From positions 6,368,001 to 6,432,000 of the forward strand of contig OY759599.1 of assembly GCA_963662465.1 (NCBI GenBank): 64,000 nt of DNA. The letters are read 5' to 3'. The notes under the pieces are model-generated. The model was not told where the DNA came from, ran no database searches, and saw only the letters and a program-made list of their open reading frames with translations. Below are positions 4,175 through 12,767 of the stretch, piece by piece; positions within the stretch are counted from its first letter, which is position 1; each line of letters starts with the position of its first letter. The translations under genes were made by a program, and so were the position numbers. The DNA comes from Desulfatiglandales bacterium (GTDB taxonomy: Bacteria; Desulfobacterota; DSM-4660; Desulfatiglandales; Desulfatiglandaceae).

Positions 4175-6442
4175 ATGATTGTCAAAACAGAAAAAATTAG
4201 CGACCTATCCATATGGACCGAGCGGGATTGGAAGGAAAAAATCACTGTTACGGTTTATCATGAGTATCGTCCTGTCGTCAGTTTCGATCCTGGGAAGATA
4301 AATGATAGGAGACTCGCTGCCGTACAACTTGTCGAGCTTGGTTATTGTAAAAACCGGGTTGCCGGTAAAATCTGTGGGTTTCACCGCAATACGGTTGGCA
4401 AACTGCTTCGCACCAAAAGACTTTTAGGTGTTGAGGCCATATTTGAGGACAACCGTGGTCCCAAGGCTCCCTGGAAATATATTGGCAGCATTCGCAAAAC
4501 CATCAAAAAACTTATCCGCGAGAATCCTGACTGGACTGACCAGCAGATTGCAAATGCCGCGGAAAAGCAAACTGAAACGACTATTTCGAGAAGTGCTGTA
4601 GCTCGTATCAGAACCGCGGACCAAGATGCAGAAACTGAAAAGCCTACAAAGCATGACTTGGAGCAACTGGCTAAAATTGCGGATAGTATTGATTTGAAGC
4701 AACACGACGAGCGACAGCTTTCTTTCAACTTTGAGGCTGATTCTGAGTTCAAAAAGAAGGTAGATGAATTTGCTGATGAGGATACACCCAAGCCACAAAC
4801 CGATACAGATAAAGTATTCCTGGATTATCTTCAACAGGGACAACGCAATGTCTTTGCCGGCATGCTTCTTCACCATCTGTTTTTAGATCATATCAACTTC
4901 CCAAATGCCTTTGATTTGCCTTCTTATTCCAATAATATGTATGATAATTATGAAGTGATGGAAACTGTCCTTTTCGGGTTGAACATCGGGTTGCCATCTA
5001 TCGAATCCCATAAGCTGGTCAACAGTAGGGACATGGGGCTTTTGCTGGGACGAACCAGTTCCCCCGATGAGACCACTATTCGGTTGCGTTTAAAACAGAT
5101 GGCCGAGTTCAAGCCCTCAGAGAGCCTGATAGATTATTTCGCAAACCTGTTTCTATCGTTGGGGTTCATCAACCCAGAGGTGTTTTTTATCGATGGGCAC
5201 TTCCTTCCCTATTATGGACTGAAAGTTCTATCCAAAGGCTACCATACCGTGAGACGAATTGTCATGAAAGGAAACGAGATTTATGTTGTCAGCGACCTTG
5301 ACGGGAAGCCTTTCTTTTCAATTACCGAAGGGTGTGATATCGATTTCAGGCCGATCATCATAAGAGCGGCCGACAAGATAATCAGCCTGGGTGTCGACCG
5401 CCCCATTGTGGTTTTTGATCGCGGTGGTTATGGTGTTCACTTTTTCAGTCAATTATCGAAAAGGGCTGACTTTATTACGTGGGCCAGGTATGTGAAAAAA
5501 GATGAATTGAAAGACTTGGAATATACGAGCTGCTTGATGTTTAATGGGAAAAGATATCTCATTGCCGAGAAAACAAAACTGATTCGTGAATCGATTTCTA
5601 CAGCTGCCAAAGAAGGCCGAACAGAGGCAACTTCGACAGAAGTACGTATGGTTGTTTTCAAGGAATTGGACAAGGATAGACCTGTGGCAATATATACCAG
5701 CAATCATCAAAAGCCTGCTCCTGATATTGCCGCATATATGCTTTCACGATGGGGAGAGTCTGAAAACTTTTTCAAAGAGATGATGTCCCTGTACAACTTC
5801 AATTATCATCCCGGTTATGATCTTAAAGAACTTGAAGAACAGCCTCTTGTAGATAATCCTGAGGTAAAAACAATCAAAAAAACGATCAAGGGAATTAAAC
5901 AAAAGATGGGGCAATTGGCGCTTGCAAAACAACAAACAGAGTCCAAAATAGAAGCACGAAAAGATCTTCGTCTTAAAAAAAAGCTAAACACGCTCCAGGA
6001 AGAGATAGAGAAATACGACAAAGAGCTTGACGGTTTTCAGGCAGCCTTAAAAGAAATGCCTGACAAAGTATCGATAATTGAAGTGCTGAAAGGCAGACCA
6101 ATGAACAAGGCAGATCTGGAGAAAAAGAAGCTCTACGACCTGATACAAATGATTGCCTTTCACTCACGCGAGCATCTGGTTGGCCTGTTCCGTTCATGTT
6201 ATGATGATCCGCGGGATGTGAAACAGATCCTGACAAAGGTCACAAAACTCCCTGGTTATGTGAAATTAGTCGGGAAAACACTTGTTGTGCTTTTAGATTG
6301 GATAGAGGACAAAAAGCATCGGAAGGCAGCAACAAGATTTTGCCATCTGATAAACACTATGTCGCCCAAATTGAGAGGTCGCATGGAGTTCGACCTTTAT
6401 TTTCGCATCTCCTCAATCCCTCAAGTGGGTTATTGCTGTTAA
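4175..6442 (+). CDS. Large DDE transposase (N-terminal HTH; IS1634/IS4-like catalytic motifs; coiled-coil insertion)
   Basis: FFIDGH, VVFDRGG and RWGESENFFK motifs; single ORF between the TIRs. Confidence 0.8.
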   Translation: MIVKTEKISDLSIWTERDWKEKITVTVYHEYRPVVSFDPGKINDRRLAAVQLVELGYCKNRVAGKICGFHRNTVGKLLRTKRLLGVEAIFEDNRGPKAPWKYIGSIRKTIKKLIRENPDWTDQQIANAAEKQTETTISRSAVARIRTADQDAETEKPTKHDLEQLAKIADSIDLKQHDERQLSFNFEADSEFKKKVDEFADEDTPKPQTDTDKVFLDYLQQGQRNVFAGMLLHHLFLDHINFPNAFDLPSYSNNMYDNYEVMETVLFGLNIGLPSIESHKLVNSRDMGLLLGRTSSPDETTIRLRLKQMAEFKPSESLIDYFANLFLSLGFINPEVFFIDGHFLPYYGLKVLSKGYHTVRRIVMKGNEIYVVSDLDGKPFFSITEGCDIDFRPIIIRAADKIISLGVDRPIVVFDRGGYGVHFFSQLSKRADFITWARYVKKDELKDLEYTSCLMFNGKRYLIAEKTKLIRESISTAAKEGRTEATSTEVRMVVFKELDKDRPVAIYTSNHQKPAPDIAAYMLSRWGESENFFKEMMSLYNFNYHPGYDLKELEEQPLVDNPEVKTIKKTIKGIKQKMGQLALAKQQTESKIEARKDLRLKKKLNTLQEEIEKYDKELDGFQAALKEMPDKVSIIEVLKGRPMNKADLEKKKLYDLIQMIAFHSREHLVGLFRSCYDDPRDVKQILTKVTKLPGYVKLVGKTLVVLLDWIEDKKHRKAATRFCHLINTMSPKLRGRMEFDLYFRISSIPQVGYCC

Positions 6443-6786: not shown

Positions 6787-7430
6787 GTTGGCTCGTGTTT
6801 ATCCAGCCCTGCATTTCCAGCACGAGTTTCCTTTGTGGGCTATGTCCTTCCGTCAGGTCCTTCCCCTTGTGGCCGGCTTTCCCAACTGCTGACAATGCCT
6901 GATAAGACACCCCGCTGGCATATAGCCGCCTTACGACGACCCACCTGGTTCTTGCCAGGAGCACAACGGGGCTTCCCGAGTTCTACGGCGTATCTCTTCC
7001 TGCATGCCACGGCCTGAGGACTTCGGCGGACCTCCACATCCTCGCCATAAACGGATGCTTCTGTGTTGTCTTCGGTGAACGCTAAAACCCTCGACGTCCG
7101 CAATTGCTATTTCGAAGCTGTACCAGCACTTCAGGGTGCGCAATCACCCCTGCGGCCTACAGGATACTCTGCCTACGCTTAACCCATCTTGTTTGCTGTT
7201 CATGCCGTTAGGTGGGGTGAGTCCATCCACCTATTTGCTCCATCCCTGAAGCGCGCTCGTTTCCAACCGACATGTTTATGCCGATGTCCTACACCTTACA
7301 GGCAGAACAACTTCGCCATGGGTCCAAAGCTCGATACGGGTGGGTAGCTAACCCTTACAGAAAGCCATTACTGGTTTTCCTCCCGACAGGGATTTTCATC
7401 CTGCAAGATACGCCGAGCTTTCCTCGGCGC
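6783..7430 (-). mobile_element. Group II intron A, 5' part only (DI-DIII; RT ORF and DV/DVI deleted)
   Basis: 5' end (TC)GCGCCGAGGAAAGCTCGGCG...GAAAATCCCTGTCGGG and internal GGGAAAGCC...GGGGAAGG elements resemble bacterial group II introns; breaks off into mrr. Confidence 0.7.
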
Positions 7431-7477
7431 GCCGGGTAGCCGGGGGATGTTACCACCCCCGAGCCCCCTCAGAACCA

Positions 7478-7867
7478 CTATATAATGCCCATCAAAACCA
7501 GTTTATAACTCGGGTATATTACCCCTTTCACCCAAGAACCGGTGAAGAAATTTATGTGGTAGGTACCAGAAACCATCGTGGAGAAACTTGTTTTGTAACA
7601 AAGAAACCTGATGGTCGCCATGAATTGATACCTGCGTGGATGACCAATCCAAAGTATGAAAAGATATCCCTCGGCTCAAAACCCGCTATCGAAATCAGGG
7701 CGCTTAAGAATTTATATTGCTTAATAGTGAATAGAAAAATACCGTTTCCTCCTGATGAAGTCAATTCGAAAACAAGGAGGAAAGATGACGAAACAAAAAT
7801 ATCATCAACTTCGGCTTTGGGATTATTTACCATCACCGATCGAAATTCCAAGAGAAACACGAAATAG
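7478..7867 (+). CDS. DUF5372/Y4bD-like accessory ORF lacking a start codon upstream of its conserved motif in the integrated state
   Basis: YPFHP..G...IPAWMT motif; frame is open from the direct repeat and the first possible start (GTG 7556) lies after the YPFHP motif. Confidence 0.65.
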   Translation, partial: LYNAHQNQFITRVYYPFHPRTGEEIYVVGTRNHRGETCFVTKKPDGRHELIPAWMTNPKYEKISLGSKPAIEIRALKNLYCLIVNRKIPFPPDEVNSKTRRKDDETKISSTSALGLFTITDRNSKRNTK

Positions 7868-7946
7868 ATTGATTGATTTCCTTGCAGAGCTTCTGTCAGG
7901 TTTCTGGCAAAATTCTGAGGGTAACAGAAATAGAAAAGAGAAGTAG
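7785..7946 (+). CDS. Small accessory protein of the LSR element
   Basis: AAGGAGG SD; QLRLW...IPRETRNRLIDFLAELL, similar to small ORFs preceding this recombinase type. Confidence 0.55.
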   Translation: MTKQKYHQLRLWDYLPSPIEIPRETRNRLIDFLAELLSGFWQNSEGNRNRKEK

Positions 7947-8145
7947 TTTCACTAACGTAAAATCGCGGTCTGATATTGGAAGCAGTCAAGAGACTGGAGT
8001 TGTTGAAGCAAGCAGCTTAATCCGACTCAGAAAAATCGTAACGATAAATCATAAATAGCTTATTTTCCGATAGAAATAGGTGTTTAACTGAAAAACGTAC
8101 ACGGTATTCAAAAATATTGGACGAATTTGAAGGTGAAAAGGAGCG

Positions 8146-8352
8146 ATGAAAATGAGAGGTGGGAGTCGAAAAGGCGCTGGTCGAAAAAGGAGTCCTGAAC
8201 ATCTGAGGCGTATCCCCGTCACGATTCGGTTACGGAAGTGGATGGTTTCACAGATCAAAATGAAAGGCGAGATAGGGTATTTGATTGAACTCGAATTAGC
8301 GACGAAAAAGGGTTTTCTCGACTTACCAGATGATTATCTGGTCGGAAGCTGA
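8146..8352 (+). CDS. Small basic DNA-binding protein (RHH-like)
   Basis: AAGGAG SD; GGSRKGAGRK...PVTIRLRKW. Confidence 0.55.
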   Translation: MKMRGGSRKGAGRKRSPEHLRRIPVTIRLRKWMVSQIKMKGEIGYLIELELATKKGFLDLPDDYLVGS

Positions 8353-8445
8353 CTAAGGTGCGGTTATGGTCGCTCTTTTAATGGATATTTCGGCAGGAGC
8401 CACCGGAGCCTTCTATGACCTCGTCGCAGCTTACAATTACTCATA

Positions 8446-8490
8446 TGGGGGTCAAAATTCGGTTGTCGCAAGAGGTCAATTTTCGGTTGA
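8446..8490. repeat. IS21-like terminal sequence remnant
   Basis: Tandem GGTCAAAATTCGGTTG / GGTCAATTTTCGGTTG ending in TGACA. Confidence 0.5.
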
Positions 8491-8520
8491 CATTTCGAGA
8501 AAAGAAAGGTGGAAATGAGC

Positions 8521-10602
8521 ATGAGCAATAAAATCAATGCTGAACATATTAGTCGGGAAGCATGTATATATATCCGTCAGTCAACACCGGGCCAAGTTCT
8601 ACAGCATCGTGAAAGCCAACTTTTACAATATGGCTTGGTAGAAAGGGCAAAAGAATTAGGATGGAACGAGAAAAACATATGGATGATAGATAGTGATTTG
8701 GGAATAACTGCATCGGGATGCGTTGACAGAAAAGGATTCCAGAATCTTCTTTCATCTGTGTGTGAAGGAAGAATAGGGGGTATTTTCTCGATTGAATCAT
8801 CGAGGTTGGCCCGCAACGGTCGAGAGTGGCATACGTTGCTTGAGATCTGTGCACTTAAAAAAACGGTTCTTGTAGATCAAGGAGCTGTTTATGACCTAAA
8901 CGTGTCAAATGATCGTTTGCTCCTGGGCTTAAAGGGAGAAATGAGTGCAATGGAATTGAGCCTATTAAAGGAGCGTTCTCAGGCGGCAATACAACAAAAA
9001 GCGAAGCGGGGAGAATTATATCTTACTGTACCGGCAGCCTATATAAAGACTAGGGATAATAAGCTGAAAAAGAATCCTGACAAACGAATTCAAGAAGTCA
9101 TTGATTTGGTATTCACGAAATTCAAGGAATATGGTACTCTTCGTCGGGTGTATCATTGGTTTTTAGATGAACAGATTGAGATTGCTGTTGTTTCCAGCGG
9201 TAAAGGGGAACGTAGGATAGAGTGGAAACTACCGTCTGCTCATACCTTGTCGCATATAGTGAACAACCCAATTTACGCCGGCGCCTACGTCTATGGCCGG
9301 ACTAAAACAGAGGTAACTTTTGAAAATGGGCGCAAGCGACTGAGGAAGGGTATTCGTAAGGAACAAAAGGATTGGGACGTTTTAATATTGGATCACCATG
9401 AAGGTTACATCACATGGGAAGAGTACCAGTATAACATGGAGATACTAACTCAAAATACAAATAAGAAAAGGCCGGTGGTGAGAGGAGCTGTTCGCGGAGG
9501 AAAGGCATTGCTTGGAGGTTTGTTAAGATGCGGTCATTGCGGTAGAAAGTTAATTGTACGATACCAAGGCCGTAATGGAACTCATAAACGTTATGAGTGT
9601 AGCCGCAAACGAGGTAACGAGACAGGAAAGGCGTGTATATCATTTGGTGGATTCCGTGTTGGCCGGGCTGTTACGGATTTTCTTTTGAAAGTATTATCAC
9701 CGATAGGATTAGAAGCTTCTTTAGAGGCGATAAAGAAAATCAACCATGAATCGGATTCAGTGAAACGGCAACGGGAACTGGAGTTGGAACAAGCGCGTTA
9801 TGAAGCTTTACGGGCAAAACGTCAATACAATGCAGTAGACCCTGATAATCGTTTGGTAGCATCTACATTGGAGAAGGATTGGAATGACGCTCTTGTTAAG
9901 GTAGCAAGATTGGAGAATGAGGTTGACGCCATGGGATCGAACACCCCTTCGCTTTCCCCTGAGGAGGAGACTGAGATCAGAGATCTATCAAAAGATTTAC
10001 CTCGTGTATGGAATGATCCGTTTTGCTCTTTGGATTTAAAGAAGCGTATAATCCGGACGGTTATCAAAGAGATCGTTGTTTATTTGGAAGATCAAAAGAT
10101 CAAATTAATCATTCACTGGGAAGGGGGTGAGCATACGGAATTGGAGGTATTGAAGAATAAGTCTTCCAGTTACCCATTGAAAACCGATGTTGATACAAAA
10201 AAGATAATATCCGATTTGGCTAGAATTATGCCTGATAAACACATCGTGGCCTTTCTCAACCGTGTGGGTACAAAGACTACAAAGGGATATACCTGGAATC
10301 CGGTAAGGTTGCGTTCATTTCGAAATAGGCATAATATCCCTGTATATCATGAAGGAGAGAGGCAGCGACGAGAAGAATATACGGTAGCTGAAGCAAGCGA
10401 AAGGCTGGGTATTGGCAGCACCAAAGTTTGGAGACTTATACAACATGAGATTCTACCCGCCAAGCGAGTATGTTCCGGTGCTCCATGGATCATTTCAAAA
10501 AAGGACCTTGAATCTGAAGTGATAAAAAAGGCAGCTCATTCCGGGCTTCCAAAGAGCCCGCTTTCAAGAAACTCAAAACAACAAGTCTTTAATTTTCAAT
10601 AA
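8521..10602 (+). CDS. Large serine recombinase (resolvase, recombinase, Zn ribbon, coiled coil, C-terminal HTH)
   Basis: YIRQST catalytic Ser, SRLARN, NPIYAG, LLRCGHCG, TVAEASERLGIG. Confidence 0.92.
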   Translation: MSNKINAEHISREACIYIRQSTPGQVLQHRESQLLQYGLVERAKELGWNEKNIWMIDSDLGITASGCVDRKGFQNLLSSVCEGRIGGIFSIESSRLARNGREWHTLLEICALKKTVLVDQGAVYDLNVSNDRLLLGLKGEMSAMELSLLKERSQAAIQQKAKRGELYLTVPAAYIKTRDNKLKKNPDKRIQEVIDLVFTKFKEYGTLRRVYHWFLDEQIEIAVVSSGKGERRIEWKLPSAHTLSHIVNNPIYAGAYVYGRTKTEVTFENGRKRLRKGIRKEQKDWDVLILDHHEGYITWEEYQYNMEILTQNTNKKRPVVRGAVRGGKALLGGLLRCGHCGRKLIVRYQGRNGTHKRYECSRKRGNETGKACISFGGFRVGRAVTDFLLKVLSPIGLEASLEAIKKINHESDSVKRQRELELEQARYEALRAKRQYNAVDPDNRLVASTLEKDWNDALVKVARLENEVDAMGSNTPSLSPEEETEIRDLSKDLPRVWNDPFCSLDLKKRIIRTVIKEIVVYLEDQKIKLIIHWEGGEHTELEVLKNKSSSYPLKTDVDTKKIISDLARIMPDKHIVAFLNRVGTKTTKGYTWNPVRLRSFRNRHNIPVYHEGERQRREEYTVAEASERLGIGSTKVWRLIQHEILPAKRVCSGAPWIISKKDLESEVIKKAAHSGLPKSPLSRNSKQQVFNFQ

Positions 10603-11417
10603 CGTACGGAGGTGTGTATTATGCCGCTATTACCCTCAGAACCACGCATGAGACTTTCACCTCACGTGGCTCAAGCCCCCGAAAAGGTTTCCCTGGTTGG
10701 GATTCCCGCGGATTTGCATCTGCTTCACGTTACAAGCCGGCTGTCAGAGTAGCCAAAGGCGCGCGGGGCGCACCAGCCTCAAGGGCCGTCATTCGCCCGT
10801 TTCACTGGCTGCTTTCCCCGCTTTCATCTGATTCCTCCGGTGTTCACGTGATCGGGCACCGCGCTGAACGTCTGCCTCCTTACGGAGCCGGGAATATTTC
10901 ACCCGGTATCCGGACCATTACAGCCCGGCATTCGCTTTTTTCAGCCTCCTACTCCGGCCCGCCAACAGCATGCCTTACGGTTAGCCTGCCCCCAAAGGGG
11001 GCGACGGGACCGGGTTTCCACGTTCCGCATAGTTGATCCTGTGGATGACTTAGGTGCGCCCTGTACGCCGGTGGTACGACAGTTCCGTGCAGGCAGTTAG
11101 CAGACCTGCAACTTGACCACATCCGCTGACACTGGGCAGCGGCATAAGACCTGTTAATCCTCGTAGGCCCTTCGCTTGTAATCGACGCTGTAGACATTCA
11201 GATATCTTCACCATATCATCCGACCCTGGCCCTTAACCGGGGAGGATTCCCGGAGGGGTTCTCCTGTCGCCATTTGAACCCGATTCGGTACGTTGTCCGC
11301 AGGGCTTCACACCCCGTCATCAGCGCAACGGCAGCATGCCTGCGTAGGGTCCGGTAGGAACATGCCGGGTATTATAACTACTTGAATACACTCAAACTAT
11401 GCGACATCGTGTCGCAA

Positions 11418-12118: not shown

Positions 12119-12541
12119 CTACTTCAATAATCGTACAAATCCAGCTTGCTCAAAATGATGATCCGTCGTGAATCCATGACTGAGTTGGCGCTCTTTTATG
12201 ACTACAAAGCTTGAGCAGTCAACCAAACTCCACATTTTATCATCTCGTTCCTTTAGAAATTGCCAAGTTTTATCATCTAACTTCTTGTCAATATGGATGA
12301 TTTCGATCCAATCAACAGCCTTGATTGTCTCAATCGCTTGGATTTGCTTCGGACGTGGTATTCTGAGCGGACTTATGAACAAAGCGACAAGCTCCGAAAG
12401 AATATAATTTGTTGTGATGACACGGATTTGATCTTTATACCATTGCTGCATCAACCCCTTGGCATCTTGATGAAACGGCTCAGTTCGGACAAAATAATTG
12501 GCCCAACCGGAAGTATCAGCGAAAATCTCATTCATGTGCAT
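12119..12541 (-). CDS. vapC: PIN-domain VapC toxin
   Basis: IFADTSGW, TTNYILSE, SLVDCSSF, TTDHHFEQAGF. Confidence 0.9.
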   Translation of the reverse strand: MHMNEIFADTSGWANYFVRTEPFHQDAKGLMQQWYKDQIRVITTNYILSELVALFISPLRIPRPKQIQAIETIKAVDWIEIIHIDKKLDDKTWQFLKERDDKMWSLVDCSSFVVIKERQLSHGFTTDHHFEQAGFVRLLK

Positions 12542-12767
12542 TTCTCAATTCTTGTCCAAGATAAAAGTCATGATTTGAGCTAATATCTTTGATATCAGAA
12601 GAAAAAGCCCCTGCCAATTTTAATAAAGGATCATCCCGCTCATCCTTTACTACATCTCCCAGCCATTCAATTAATATCTGGTCGAGAGTTTTTCCACACT
12701 TATCAGCCTTTTTTAGTAAAGGTCGATAAATTTGATCGGGAATTTCTAACGTTAATGTGGTTGACAT
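12528..12767 (-). CDS. Antitoxin (RHH-like) upstream of vapC
   Basis: LTLEIPD...DPLLKLAG...HDFYLG; overlaps vapC. Confidence 0.75.
   Translation of the reverse strand: MSTTLTLEIPDQIYRPLLKKADKCGKTLDQILIEWLGDVVKDERDDPLLKLAGAFSSDIKDISSNHDFYLGQELRNAHE

Follow-up and report, generated by a model that had tools for sequence, protein, structure and literature searches.

A large serine recombinase element in a group II intron whose accessory gene is probably whole only when the ends of the element are joined

In the small large serine recombinase (LSR) elements Tn4451 and Tn4453 (TnpX), the joint of the circular form reportedly creates the promoter of the recombinase gene. Circle-junction promoters of this kind, also of the IS911 type, arise when the joining of the ends brings a -35 and a -10 box together. 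In the integrative and conjugative elements (ICEs) ICEclc and ICEKp1, a signal at one end of the element (Pcir and P3'end, respectively) comes to drive a gene at the opposite end only once the element is circular (PMC13023037). In SSV1, pTN3 and pT26-2, the attachment (att) site splits the gene of a "suicidal" tyrosine integrase, an arrangement that a review places in archaea only (PMC8371274). Finally, the known directionality factors of LSRs bind DBD2 and the base of the coiled coil (PMC11722253). Here, a related case is described from a Desulfatiglandales bacterium (GenBank assembly GCA_963662465.1, contig OY759599.1, positions 6,368,001 to 6,432,000 of the forward strand); this stretch of 64,000 nucleotides (nt) is referred to as the window. 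At positions 7466-10645 the window contains a discrete LSR element of 3167 bp with a 13-bp repeat (the 13-mer) at both ends. Its att site lies inside the first gene of the element itself, a gene that would be whole only when both ends are joined and whose product is predicted to be a cofactor of the LSR.

The element resembles each of those systems in part. As with Tn4451/Tn4453, it is a small LSR element with a putative circular intermediate and an expression signal that the joined ends would provide in the circle only; there, the signal is said to be a promoter for the recombinase, whereas here the joint would complete the coding sequence of an accessory gene. State-dependent expression across joined ends is also a property of ICEclc and ICEKp1, but these are tyrosine-integrase ICEs in which the switch acts on the transcription of int (PMC13023037), while the elements considered here are LSR elements of 2.6-3.4 kb with an apparently split translation start. 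The SSV1/pTN3/pT26-2 integrases are similar in that the att site falls within a gene of the element which is whole only in the free form (PMC8371274); in contrast, the present case is bacterial, the LSR gene (8509-10602) is intact, and it is an accessory gene that would be split, five codons past its start. SPbeta Int with its recombination directionality factor (RDF) and phiC31 Int with gp3 share the same LSR architecture and a small, family-specific partner at DBD2 and the coiled-coil base, a position which is predicted here; however, those phage factors are encoded by complete genes expressed from the prophage and drive excision (PMC11722253), whereas the candidate described below would not be makeable from an inserted copy. 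In none of these nearest analogues is an accessory gene of a bacterial LSR element divided between its translation start and its body. Nor was a published description of such a split found in a literature search whose coverage ended at subscription journals.

A first-pass annotation, made from the letters of the window alone, had described the split gene, and on re-reading the sequence all its coordinates (those of the 13-mer, the LSR stop codon, the GGAGGT and the ATG) hold. At the left end, a reading frame is open through the repeat and beyond it into the flank, from position 7400 at least. This frame is headless, as had been claimed: there is no ATG, GTG or TTG before a GTG at 7556, the first canonical in-frame start, which is already past the conserved YYPFHP motif. 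At the right end, the LSR stop codon (10600-10602) is directly followed by the Shine-Dalgarno motif GGAGGT, 7 nt and an ATG. Scripted in-silico joining of both ends of the 3167-bp element reproduces the in-frame open reading frame (ORF) of 137 amino acids (aa) that runs from this right-end ATG. In the inserted state, the body of the gene lies at the left end of the element, and the ribosome-binding site, the ATG and the first five codons at its right end, behind the LSR stop.

The headless stretch evolves as coding sequence. Among 19 distinct left ends (window and close relatives), excluding about 24 nt of the att arm, variable sites amount to 7/23, 2/23 and 19/23 for the first, second and third codon positions, and pairwise codon differences comprise 792 synonymous versus 550 non-synonymous ones. 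Because this third-position variation lies upstream of every candidate start, the stretch upstream of any possible start is evidently under protein-level selection. Of these left ends, 17 have no ATG, GTG or TTG through their first 31 codons, the exceptions being the window (GTG at codon 29) and L037/L038 (GTG at codon 15, just before the motif), and an in-frame ATG before the motif was found in none of the 19. Such data bear on a different explanation, namely, that the inserted copy does yield the protein, with translation beginning at an internal, a GTG/TTG or a near-cognate codon, the Shine-Dalgarno motif and ATG of the right end being kept for other reasons (as an outer part of the LSR binding site or as the tail of the LSR gene). 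In its favour, GTG or TTG codons occur ahead of the motif in L037/L038, L058, L059, L062, L063, L065, L066, L068, L070 and L071, and annotation uses them; against it, no left end examined, close or distant, has an in-frame ATG between crossover and motif.

A protein search returned 19 homologues (51-98% identity), all of them from metagenomes or metagenome-assembled genomes (MAGs), whose N-termini diverge upstream of a conserved block. The loci compared comprised three genome loci (from Desulfatiglandales, Thermodesulfobacteriota and Desulfobacterales MAGs) and 27 metagenome loci. These relatives measure about 2.6 kb and consist of the DUF5372-like gene, some 85 nt and the LSR gene. In all 14 relatives with a full LSR gene (74-84% aa identity), the right end carries GGAGG or AGAGG, a spacer and an ATG at one fixed distance from the core and crossover; L013 (95% identical) stands outside this set, both the scripted motif and the LSR match being absent from it. 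Once joined, the ends read in frame from that ATG in 13 of 13 loci, with ORFs of 137 aa (window), 133 aa (nine loci) and 114 aa (three loci), although these 13 loci are not independent, several of them being one element at different sites.

The same arrangement is found at much greater distance. Few genomes of the order (4 of 151) or of the phylum (6 of 401) contain bona fide DUF5372 genes (55-88 bits), and DUF5372 genes are present in 135 plasmid records from rhizobia, Burkholderiaceae, Streptomyces and Rhodococcus. Wherever enough downstream sequence is available, the gene precedes an LSR gene on the same strand (exception: L063 of Streptomyces), these LSRs being 32-37% identical to that of the window. 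The distant stop-to-stop frames contain no ATG ahead of the HPFHP motif, and two of them (L054 and L060) contain not a single Met, Val or Leu codon there, which argues against translation in the inserted state. At the opposite end, three forms can be distinguished: (i) in L055, L056, L058, L059, L067, L070 and L071, the LSR gene terminates in GGAGGTGC-N3-ATGA or a very similar sequence, which places a Shine-Dalgarno motif within the LSR gene and makes the start codon overlap the LSR stop; (ii) L064 and L069 have GTG at the start position; and (iii) L054, L065 and L068 have GAGGTG and then ATG directly past the LSR stop. Overlaps of the ATGA type are typical of coupled genes, which again speaks against translation in the inserted state. 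In all these distant elements, the start codon is 14 nt away from the crossover, as it is in the window.

All 12 resolved distant elements have an in-frame junction ORF (104-110 aa); they span four phyla and come from Desulfobacterota-type genomes, Burkholderiaceae, rhizobia and Rhodococcus. With the close loci, this makes 25 in-frame junctions out of 25. The distance from the crossover to the motif is 17 codons in the window and 19, 20, 21, 23 or 24 codons elsewhere: insertions and deletions have evidently occurred between both points, and the frame was kept every time. Left out of the junction count were L060-L063, which have no usable right end, and L066, whose left end is like those of IS66-type relatives, whose sole Shine-Dalgarno-ATG after the LSR gene implies another centre, and in which a second LSR gene follows. 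A generic pairing of any Shine-Dalgarno-start with any left-end dinucleotide was dropped as too noisy in high-GC loci. The comparison of start and frame in homologous elements, which the first-pass annotation had suggested, hence comes out in favour of its idea of an att site acting as a coding switch, for which the conserved junction start and frame provide support at the sequence level.

A comparison of attL and attR in the relatives narrows the exchange down to 13-mer positions 2-4, the simplest solution being the dinucleotide at positions 3-4 (CT or CA). The second base of this dinucleotide differs between attL and attR in four insertions (L019, L032, the distant L054 and copy c6 of the genome under study; T/A or T/C); on one reading, a mismatch at the second crossover base would be tolerated. 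The attP-like geometry first proposed, with arms 24 nt apart and centred within the 13-mer, stands: the mid-point of the joined 10-nt arms falls at 13-mer positions 3-4, and the joined site shows imperfect dyad symmetry around the central dinucleotide. In nine related elements, the arms are complementary at 11-14 of 26 positions around the putative centre, above the mean of 500 shuffles (6.4-6.9; maximum 13-15), and this centre is the best-scoring one in six of the nine. The Shine-Dalgarno motif, at a distance of 23-27 from the centre, lies outside the symmetric block, one position excepted, and is kept down to 32-37% LSR identity, contrary to what its retention as part of an LSR binding site would lead one to expect.

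With regard to the element itself, the genome (8.16 Mb, one contig) harbours seven copies of 98.7-100% identity, one of them interrupted, as well as empty sites in which both flanks meet at one 13-mer; given these copies and empty sites, it is a real, discrete and active-looking insertion. In the contigs of two public sequencing runs (X1 and X6), positions 7466-7468 are joined to 10633-10636, i.e., by an element-skipping joint. The first-pass annotation missed the target, a minus-strand group II intron entered at the junction of its domains V and VI. The domain V hairpin lies at the right junction (10640-10673) and domain VI to the left of 7466, so that both hairpins are kept apart by the element. 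The intron repeat unit begins at 7431, is contiguous at empty sites and is like the flanks in relatives, most of whose left flanks resemble antisense domain VI; of the 12 scanned relatives that have both ends, 6 show an Rfam domain V/VI match directly at the right junction. The exact 13-mer occurs 13 times genome-wide (six attL, five attR and two uninterrupted), so intron copies that carry it are mostly occupied; the domain V/VI model has 49 matches in the genome, 42 of which exceed the cut-off. Copy c5 is inserted in another intron variant and, in consequence, the exchange must take place to the left of core position 12.

Two other copies have peculiarities. Copy c6 (C1:6823234-6826406) has odd junctions, and its right flank is a repeat with about 20 copies. 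At two further sites, this repeat is found 2756 bp rightward of a sequence that, like the left flank of c6, resembles domain VI; this suggests a deletion or rearrangement beside the copy. In copy c7 (C1:3315258-3321532), the LSR gene is broken at about window positions 10208-10218 by some 2.85 kb of other DNA.

The distant elements that combine DUF5372 and LSR genes (L054-L059 and L064-L071) sit in conserved motifs of other mobile elements, and their in-silico removal restores an unbroken target frame in 8 of 12 cases. The following targets can be differentiated: (i) group II intron reverse transcriptase, where the insertion hits the codons that follow G-I-P (same orientation in L056, opposite in L058); (ii) IS21 IstA, in a D-K / K-V-E motif (L055, L064, L067, L068 and L069; restored ORFs of at most 467 aa); (iii) IS66 TnpB (L065; frame restored); (iv) an IS91-type zinc-finger region (L059; motif across the join only, with flanks that are too short); (v) a tyrosine recombinase gene, before T-T-x-x-Y-L-G (L054; motif only, the target being also frameshifted upstream); and (vi) an rve-type transposase, in D / N-A-x-x-E-S (L071; motif across the join only). 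For L070, the boundary check was not clean. Pfam confirmed targets as Phage_integrase, Y2_Tnp with Zn_Tnp_IS91, RVT_1, and IstB with a Mu-transposase C-terminal domain; the rve match is under its cut-off (26.6 versus 32.6 bits). We take these target stretches to be catalytic motifs. Taken together, the family gives the impression of parasitising mobile elements.

The label of DUF5372-like protein, given to the window product at first, stands on its invariant core residues and its LSR neighbourhood but not on its score, since the match to DUF5372 (PF17342; residues 18-61 on profile positions 2-45 of 78) reaches 20.6 bits, under the cut-off of 25, and a whole-genome Pfam scan gave no DUF5372 match in its own genome. 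Residues P20, H22, P23, R35, P56 and W58 are invariant across 22 sequences, among them members that score 55-88 bits. A profile built from these 22 sequences retrieved 2551 cluster representatives at E <=0.001 and 720 at <=1e-10 out of 1.84 billion proteins. The N-termini were surveyed in 147 of the best 150 representatives (two already in hand and one 946-aa protein were left out), of which 135 carry the motif. These have from 2 to 128 residues ahead of it (median 30, no sharp peak), a spread as would be expected from arbitrary start calls on a headless gene. In 49 annotated plasmid rows, the match is without a called gene in 28 cases, coincides with one in 16 and carries a tnpB call in 5.

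In the AF2 model, the protein folds into a small barrel (residues 10-62, pLDDT >90) followed by a helix (77-89), with an overall pLDDT of 72.9. Its best matches are weak (Foldseek E-value 0.045; VIA Z 4.9) and correspond to SH3/Tudor/KOW-like barrels, the Foldseek and VIA searches of this model providing no functional lead. More informative is the modelled complex of the LSR with residues 1-95, which reaches an ipSAE of 0.66 (runs: 0.66, 0.66 and 0.64), against 0.00 for all three controls including the best one; the runs share at least 78% of contacts, and the pLDDT of the partner is 71. Solved complexes attain this mark in 116 of 157 cases and mismatched pairs in 2 of 215, counts that are rough because own alignments were used. 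In the model, the LSR is contacted at its zinc ribbon (337-347), at the chains of the coiled-coil base (395-408 and 482-500) and at residues 510-544, and the partner through residues 21-24, which belong to the invariant FHP motif, and 67-88. The DUF5372-like protein is, therefore, predicted to grip the base formed by the zinc ribbon and the coiled coil, the surface used by directionality factors. Of the roles guessed at first (directionality, targeting or circle maintenance), that of a directionality factor gains from this modelled position at the coiled-coil base. The LSR itself matches Resolvase (68.8 bits), Recombinase (49.7) and Zn_ribbon_recom (29.8), all above their cut-offs, and its R-Q-S-T catalytic stretch is invariant in 15 sequences. 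It has an extra C-terminal HTH_17 (excisionase-type) domain (window 10378-10512, residues 624-668), which to our knowledge is unusual among LSRs; its C-terminal region is also alignable in some distant relatives.

According to the reading favoured here, the full gene would be translated only when the ends are joined, either in an excised circle or in a head-to-tail tandem. In the joined form, the cofactor gene would be read straight after the LSR gene. Their co-transcription is suggested by the fact that the LSR stop and the start codon overlap or adjoin, and since the start overlaps the LSR stop in distant relatives, both proteins would be co-produced. The cofactor would bind, as modelled, the zinc ribbon and coiled-coil base of the LSR. 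Consequently, a circle would always yield LSR plus cofactor, and an inserted copy would be able to yield LSR alone. Tentatively, and on grounds of logic, the cofactor might set the LSR for attP x attB recombination or block re-excision: a pro-integration role is preferred because a canonical excision factor would be missing from the inserted copy, where it is needed, and made in the circle, where it does harm. The state of the DNA itself would then pick the direction of recombination, and distant family members would apply the same design to conserved motifs of other mobile elements.

A broader version, which is considered less likely than not, regards DUF5372 proteins as a new class of LSR cofactors, the reverse of the phage directionality factors, made one-for-one with the LSR and from the circle only, as a family-wide toggle. 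In such a case, LSR alone would act on the inserted ends and LSR plus cofactor would integrate, in such a way that each recombination event would rewrite the gene that decides the next one. All 2551 representative clusters would use this toggle and home in on the best-conserved catalytic cores of other elements (intron domain V, and reverse transcriptase, IS21, IS3-like, IS66, IS91 and tyrosine recombinase genes).

A number of points weigh against the split gene and its proposed role. The ATG, at a distance of 12-14 from the centre, exactly mirrors a conserved CAT (His codon) in the opposite attP arm and, hence, LSR binding alone could conserve it; likewise, the fixed att geometry partly forces the conservation of frame among close relatives. 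As to native starts, the idea that homologues have none of their own agrees with left ends free of in-frame ATG, but less well with 13 of the 135 representatives, which have four residues or fewer ahead of the motif (e.g., M-T-HPFHP); a minority of family members may own a start. Six representatives (on contigs of 755-34537 nt) share a uniform 22-residue N-terminus with a common pattern, either native or junction-derived, and in three plasmid records the NCBI annotation begins the gene at a GTG 2-4 codons ahead of the motif. The complex with the LSR is a model, and we know of no precedent for a pro-integration cofactor of a serine integrase. The scan of the inserted form found no promoter above chance: terminators and promoters were not in excess over shuffles, with 5 promoter-like sites versus 5.9 expected. 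One of those sites (10593-10622) overlaps the Shine-Dalgarno-ATG and lies entirely within the right end.

Lastly, the circle junction that the first-pass annotation proposed to look for was not found. In the assembled genome, no right end occurs within 120 nt upstream of a left end; a regular expression of right-end motif, gap and left-end motif had no match in the relatives' loci; and the corresponding junction pattern had none in viral contigs or in the 401 genomes of the phylum. Nor did the 60 best plasmid rows include a record of about 3 kb that might be a captured circle. Four of 22 listed public sequencing runs (X1, X6, X7 and X4) were examined as assembled contigs, and the joints in these are all forward ones that skip the element (empty intron copies), with no right-to-left back-joint. 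Because contigs drop rare forms, this last absence is no evidence against circles. Contigs of the metatranscriptome run X7 cover the element, which is not proof of transcription.

As for the alternatives, it is unlikely, though less so than the others, that the protein is a canonical directionality factor, which would stimulate attL x attR and inhibit attP x attB recombination, giving a burst of excision in trans with integration after its decay. The predicted contact surface is indeed that of known directionality factors, and seven near-identical copies in the genome are available for it to act on. Nevertheless, the first excision would require the factor before it can be made and, owing to the start-stop overlap, the factor would be made with every LSR molecule of the circle, thus blocking the circle's own integration. 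Less likely again is a circle-specific protein without any role in direction, devoted to repression of the LSR, to protection or maintenance of the circle, or to binding of target DNA. A barrel with a helix is generic enough to allow for it, and larger relatives carry a separate helix-turn-helix gene, possibly the true directionality factor; but the complex model passes where its three controls do not and places the invariant FHP motif in the interface, and the smallest relatives, of 2.6 kb, have no genes besides the DUF5372-like one and that of the LSR. Translation in the inserted state is the least probable of the three and indeed quite improbable, as the mirrored ATG and the lack of a circle junction in assembled contigs, which would suit it, face third-position variation upstream of every candidate start and 25 of 25 junctions in frame.

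If the split-gene reading is true, a mobile element would sense in a very compact manner whether it is inserted or free: its recombination site would double as codons 5-14 of a gene, and recombination would toggle this gene without a regulator. DUF5372, whose thousands of clusters have no assigned function, would gain a testable role as LSR partner, and it would be explained why the gene is often missed by annotation pipelines or given arbitrary starts. LSRs are widely used in genome engineering, where the control of direction is their main limitation. Landing in conserved cores of introns and insertion sequences would make these elements parasites of parasites and, at the same time, a natural catalogue of LSRs with readable targets.

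The features of the element and its host intron are compiled in Table 1.

Table 1. Features of the LSR element and of the interrupted group II intron, in window coordinates.
Feature	Position	Strand	Remarks
attL core, 13-bp repeat	7466-7478	+	Sequence reading; single copy at empty sites; putative crossover dinucleotide 7468-7469
attR core, 13-bp repeat	10633-10645	+	Sequence reading; putative crossover 10635-10636
Headless DUF5372-like gene body	7466-7867	+	Stop codon 7865-7867; AF2 core pLDDT >90
Small ORF, 63 aa	7755-7946	+	Without family match; within extra inter-gene DNA
Small ORF, 68 aa	8146-8352	+	Homologue in IS21-like element of the same genome
LSR gene	8509-10602	+	697 aa; start ambiguous (8509 or 8521)
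Putative detached head of the gene	10608-10623	+	Shine-Dalgarno GGAGGT 10608-10613, 7-nt spacer, ATG 10621-10623
Group II intron domain V/VI match	10604-10674	-	Rfam RF00029
Domain V hairpin of host intron, 34 nt	10640-10673	-	3' strand overlaps the 13-mer; sequence reading
Domain VI and 3' end of host intron	7431-7465	-	Severed from domain V by the insertion
Domains I-IV segment of host intron	11229-11369	-	Rfam RF02012, 71.7 bits

The window copy has about 0.55 kb of extra DNA between the DUF5372-like gene and the LSR gene, with both small ORFs inside, which the 2.6-kb relatives lack. The homologue of the 68-aa ORF follows istB as the 3'-terminal ORF of an IS21-like element of 3.46 kb that has about 29 copies in this genome; given this location, the ORF is evidently a small accessory gene common to unrelated elements.

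The region around the element is a pile-up of mobile elements. Just upstream (4175-6442) there is a 755-aa ORF with Transposase_29 and HTH_32 domains, and a second intron fragment (Rfam RF02005) is found at 7011-7241 on the minus strand. Further downstream, at 12119-12767 on the minus strand, two overlapping small ORFs of 140 and 79 aa show what appears to be a toxin-antitoxin-like arrangement.

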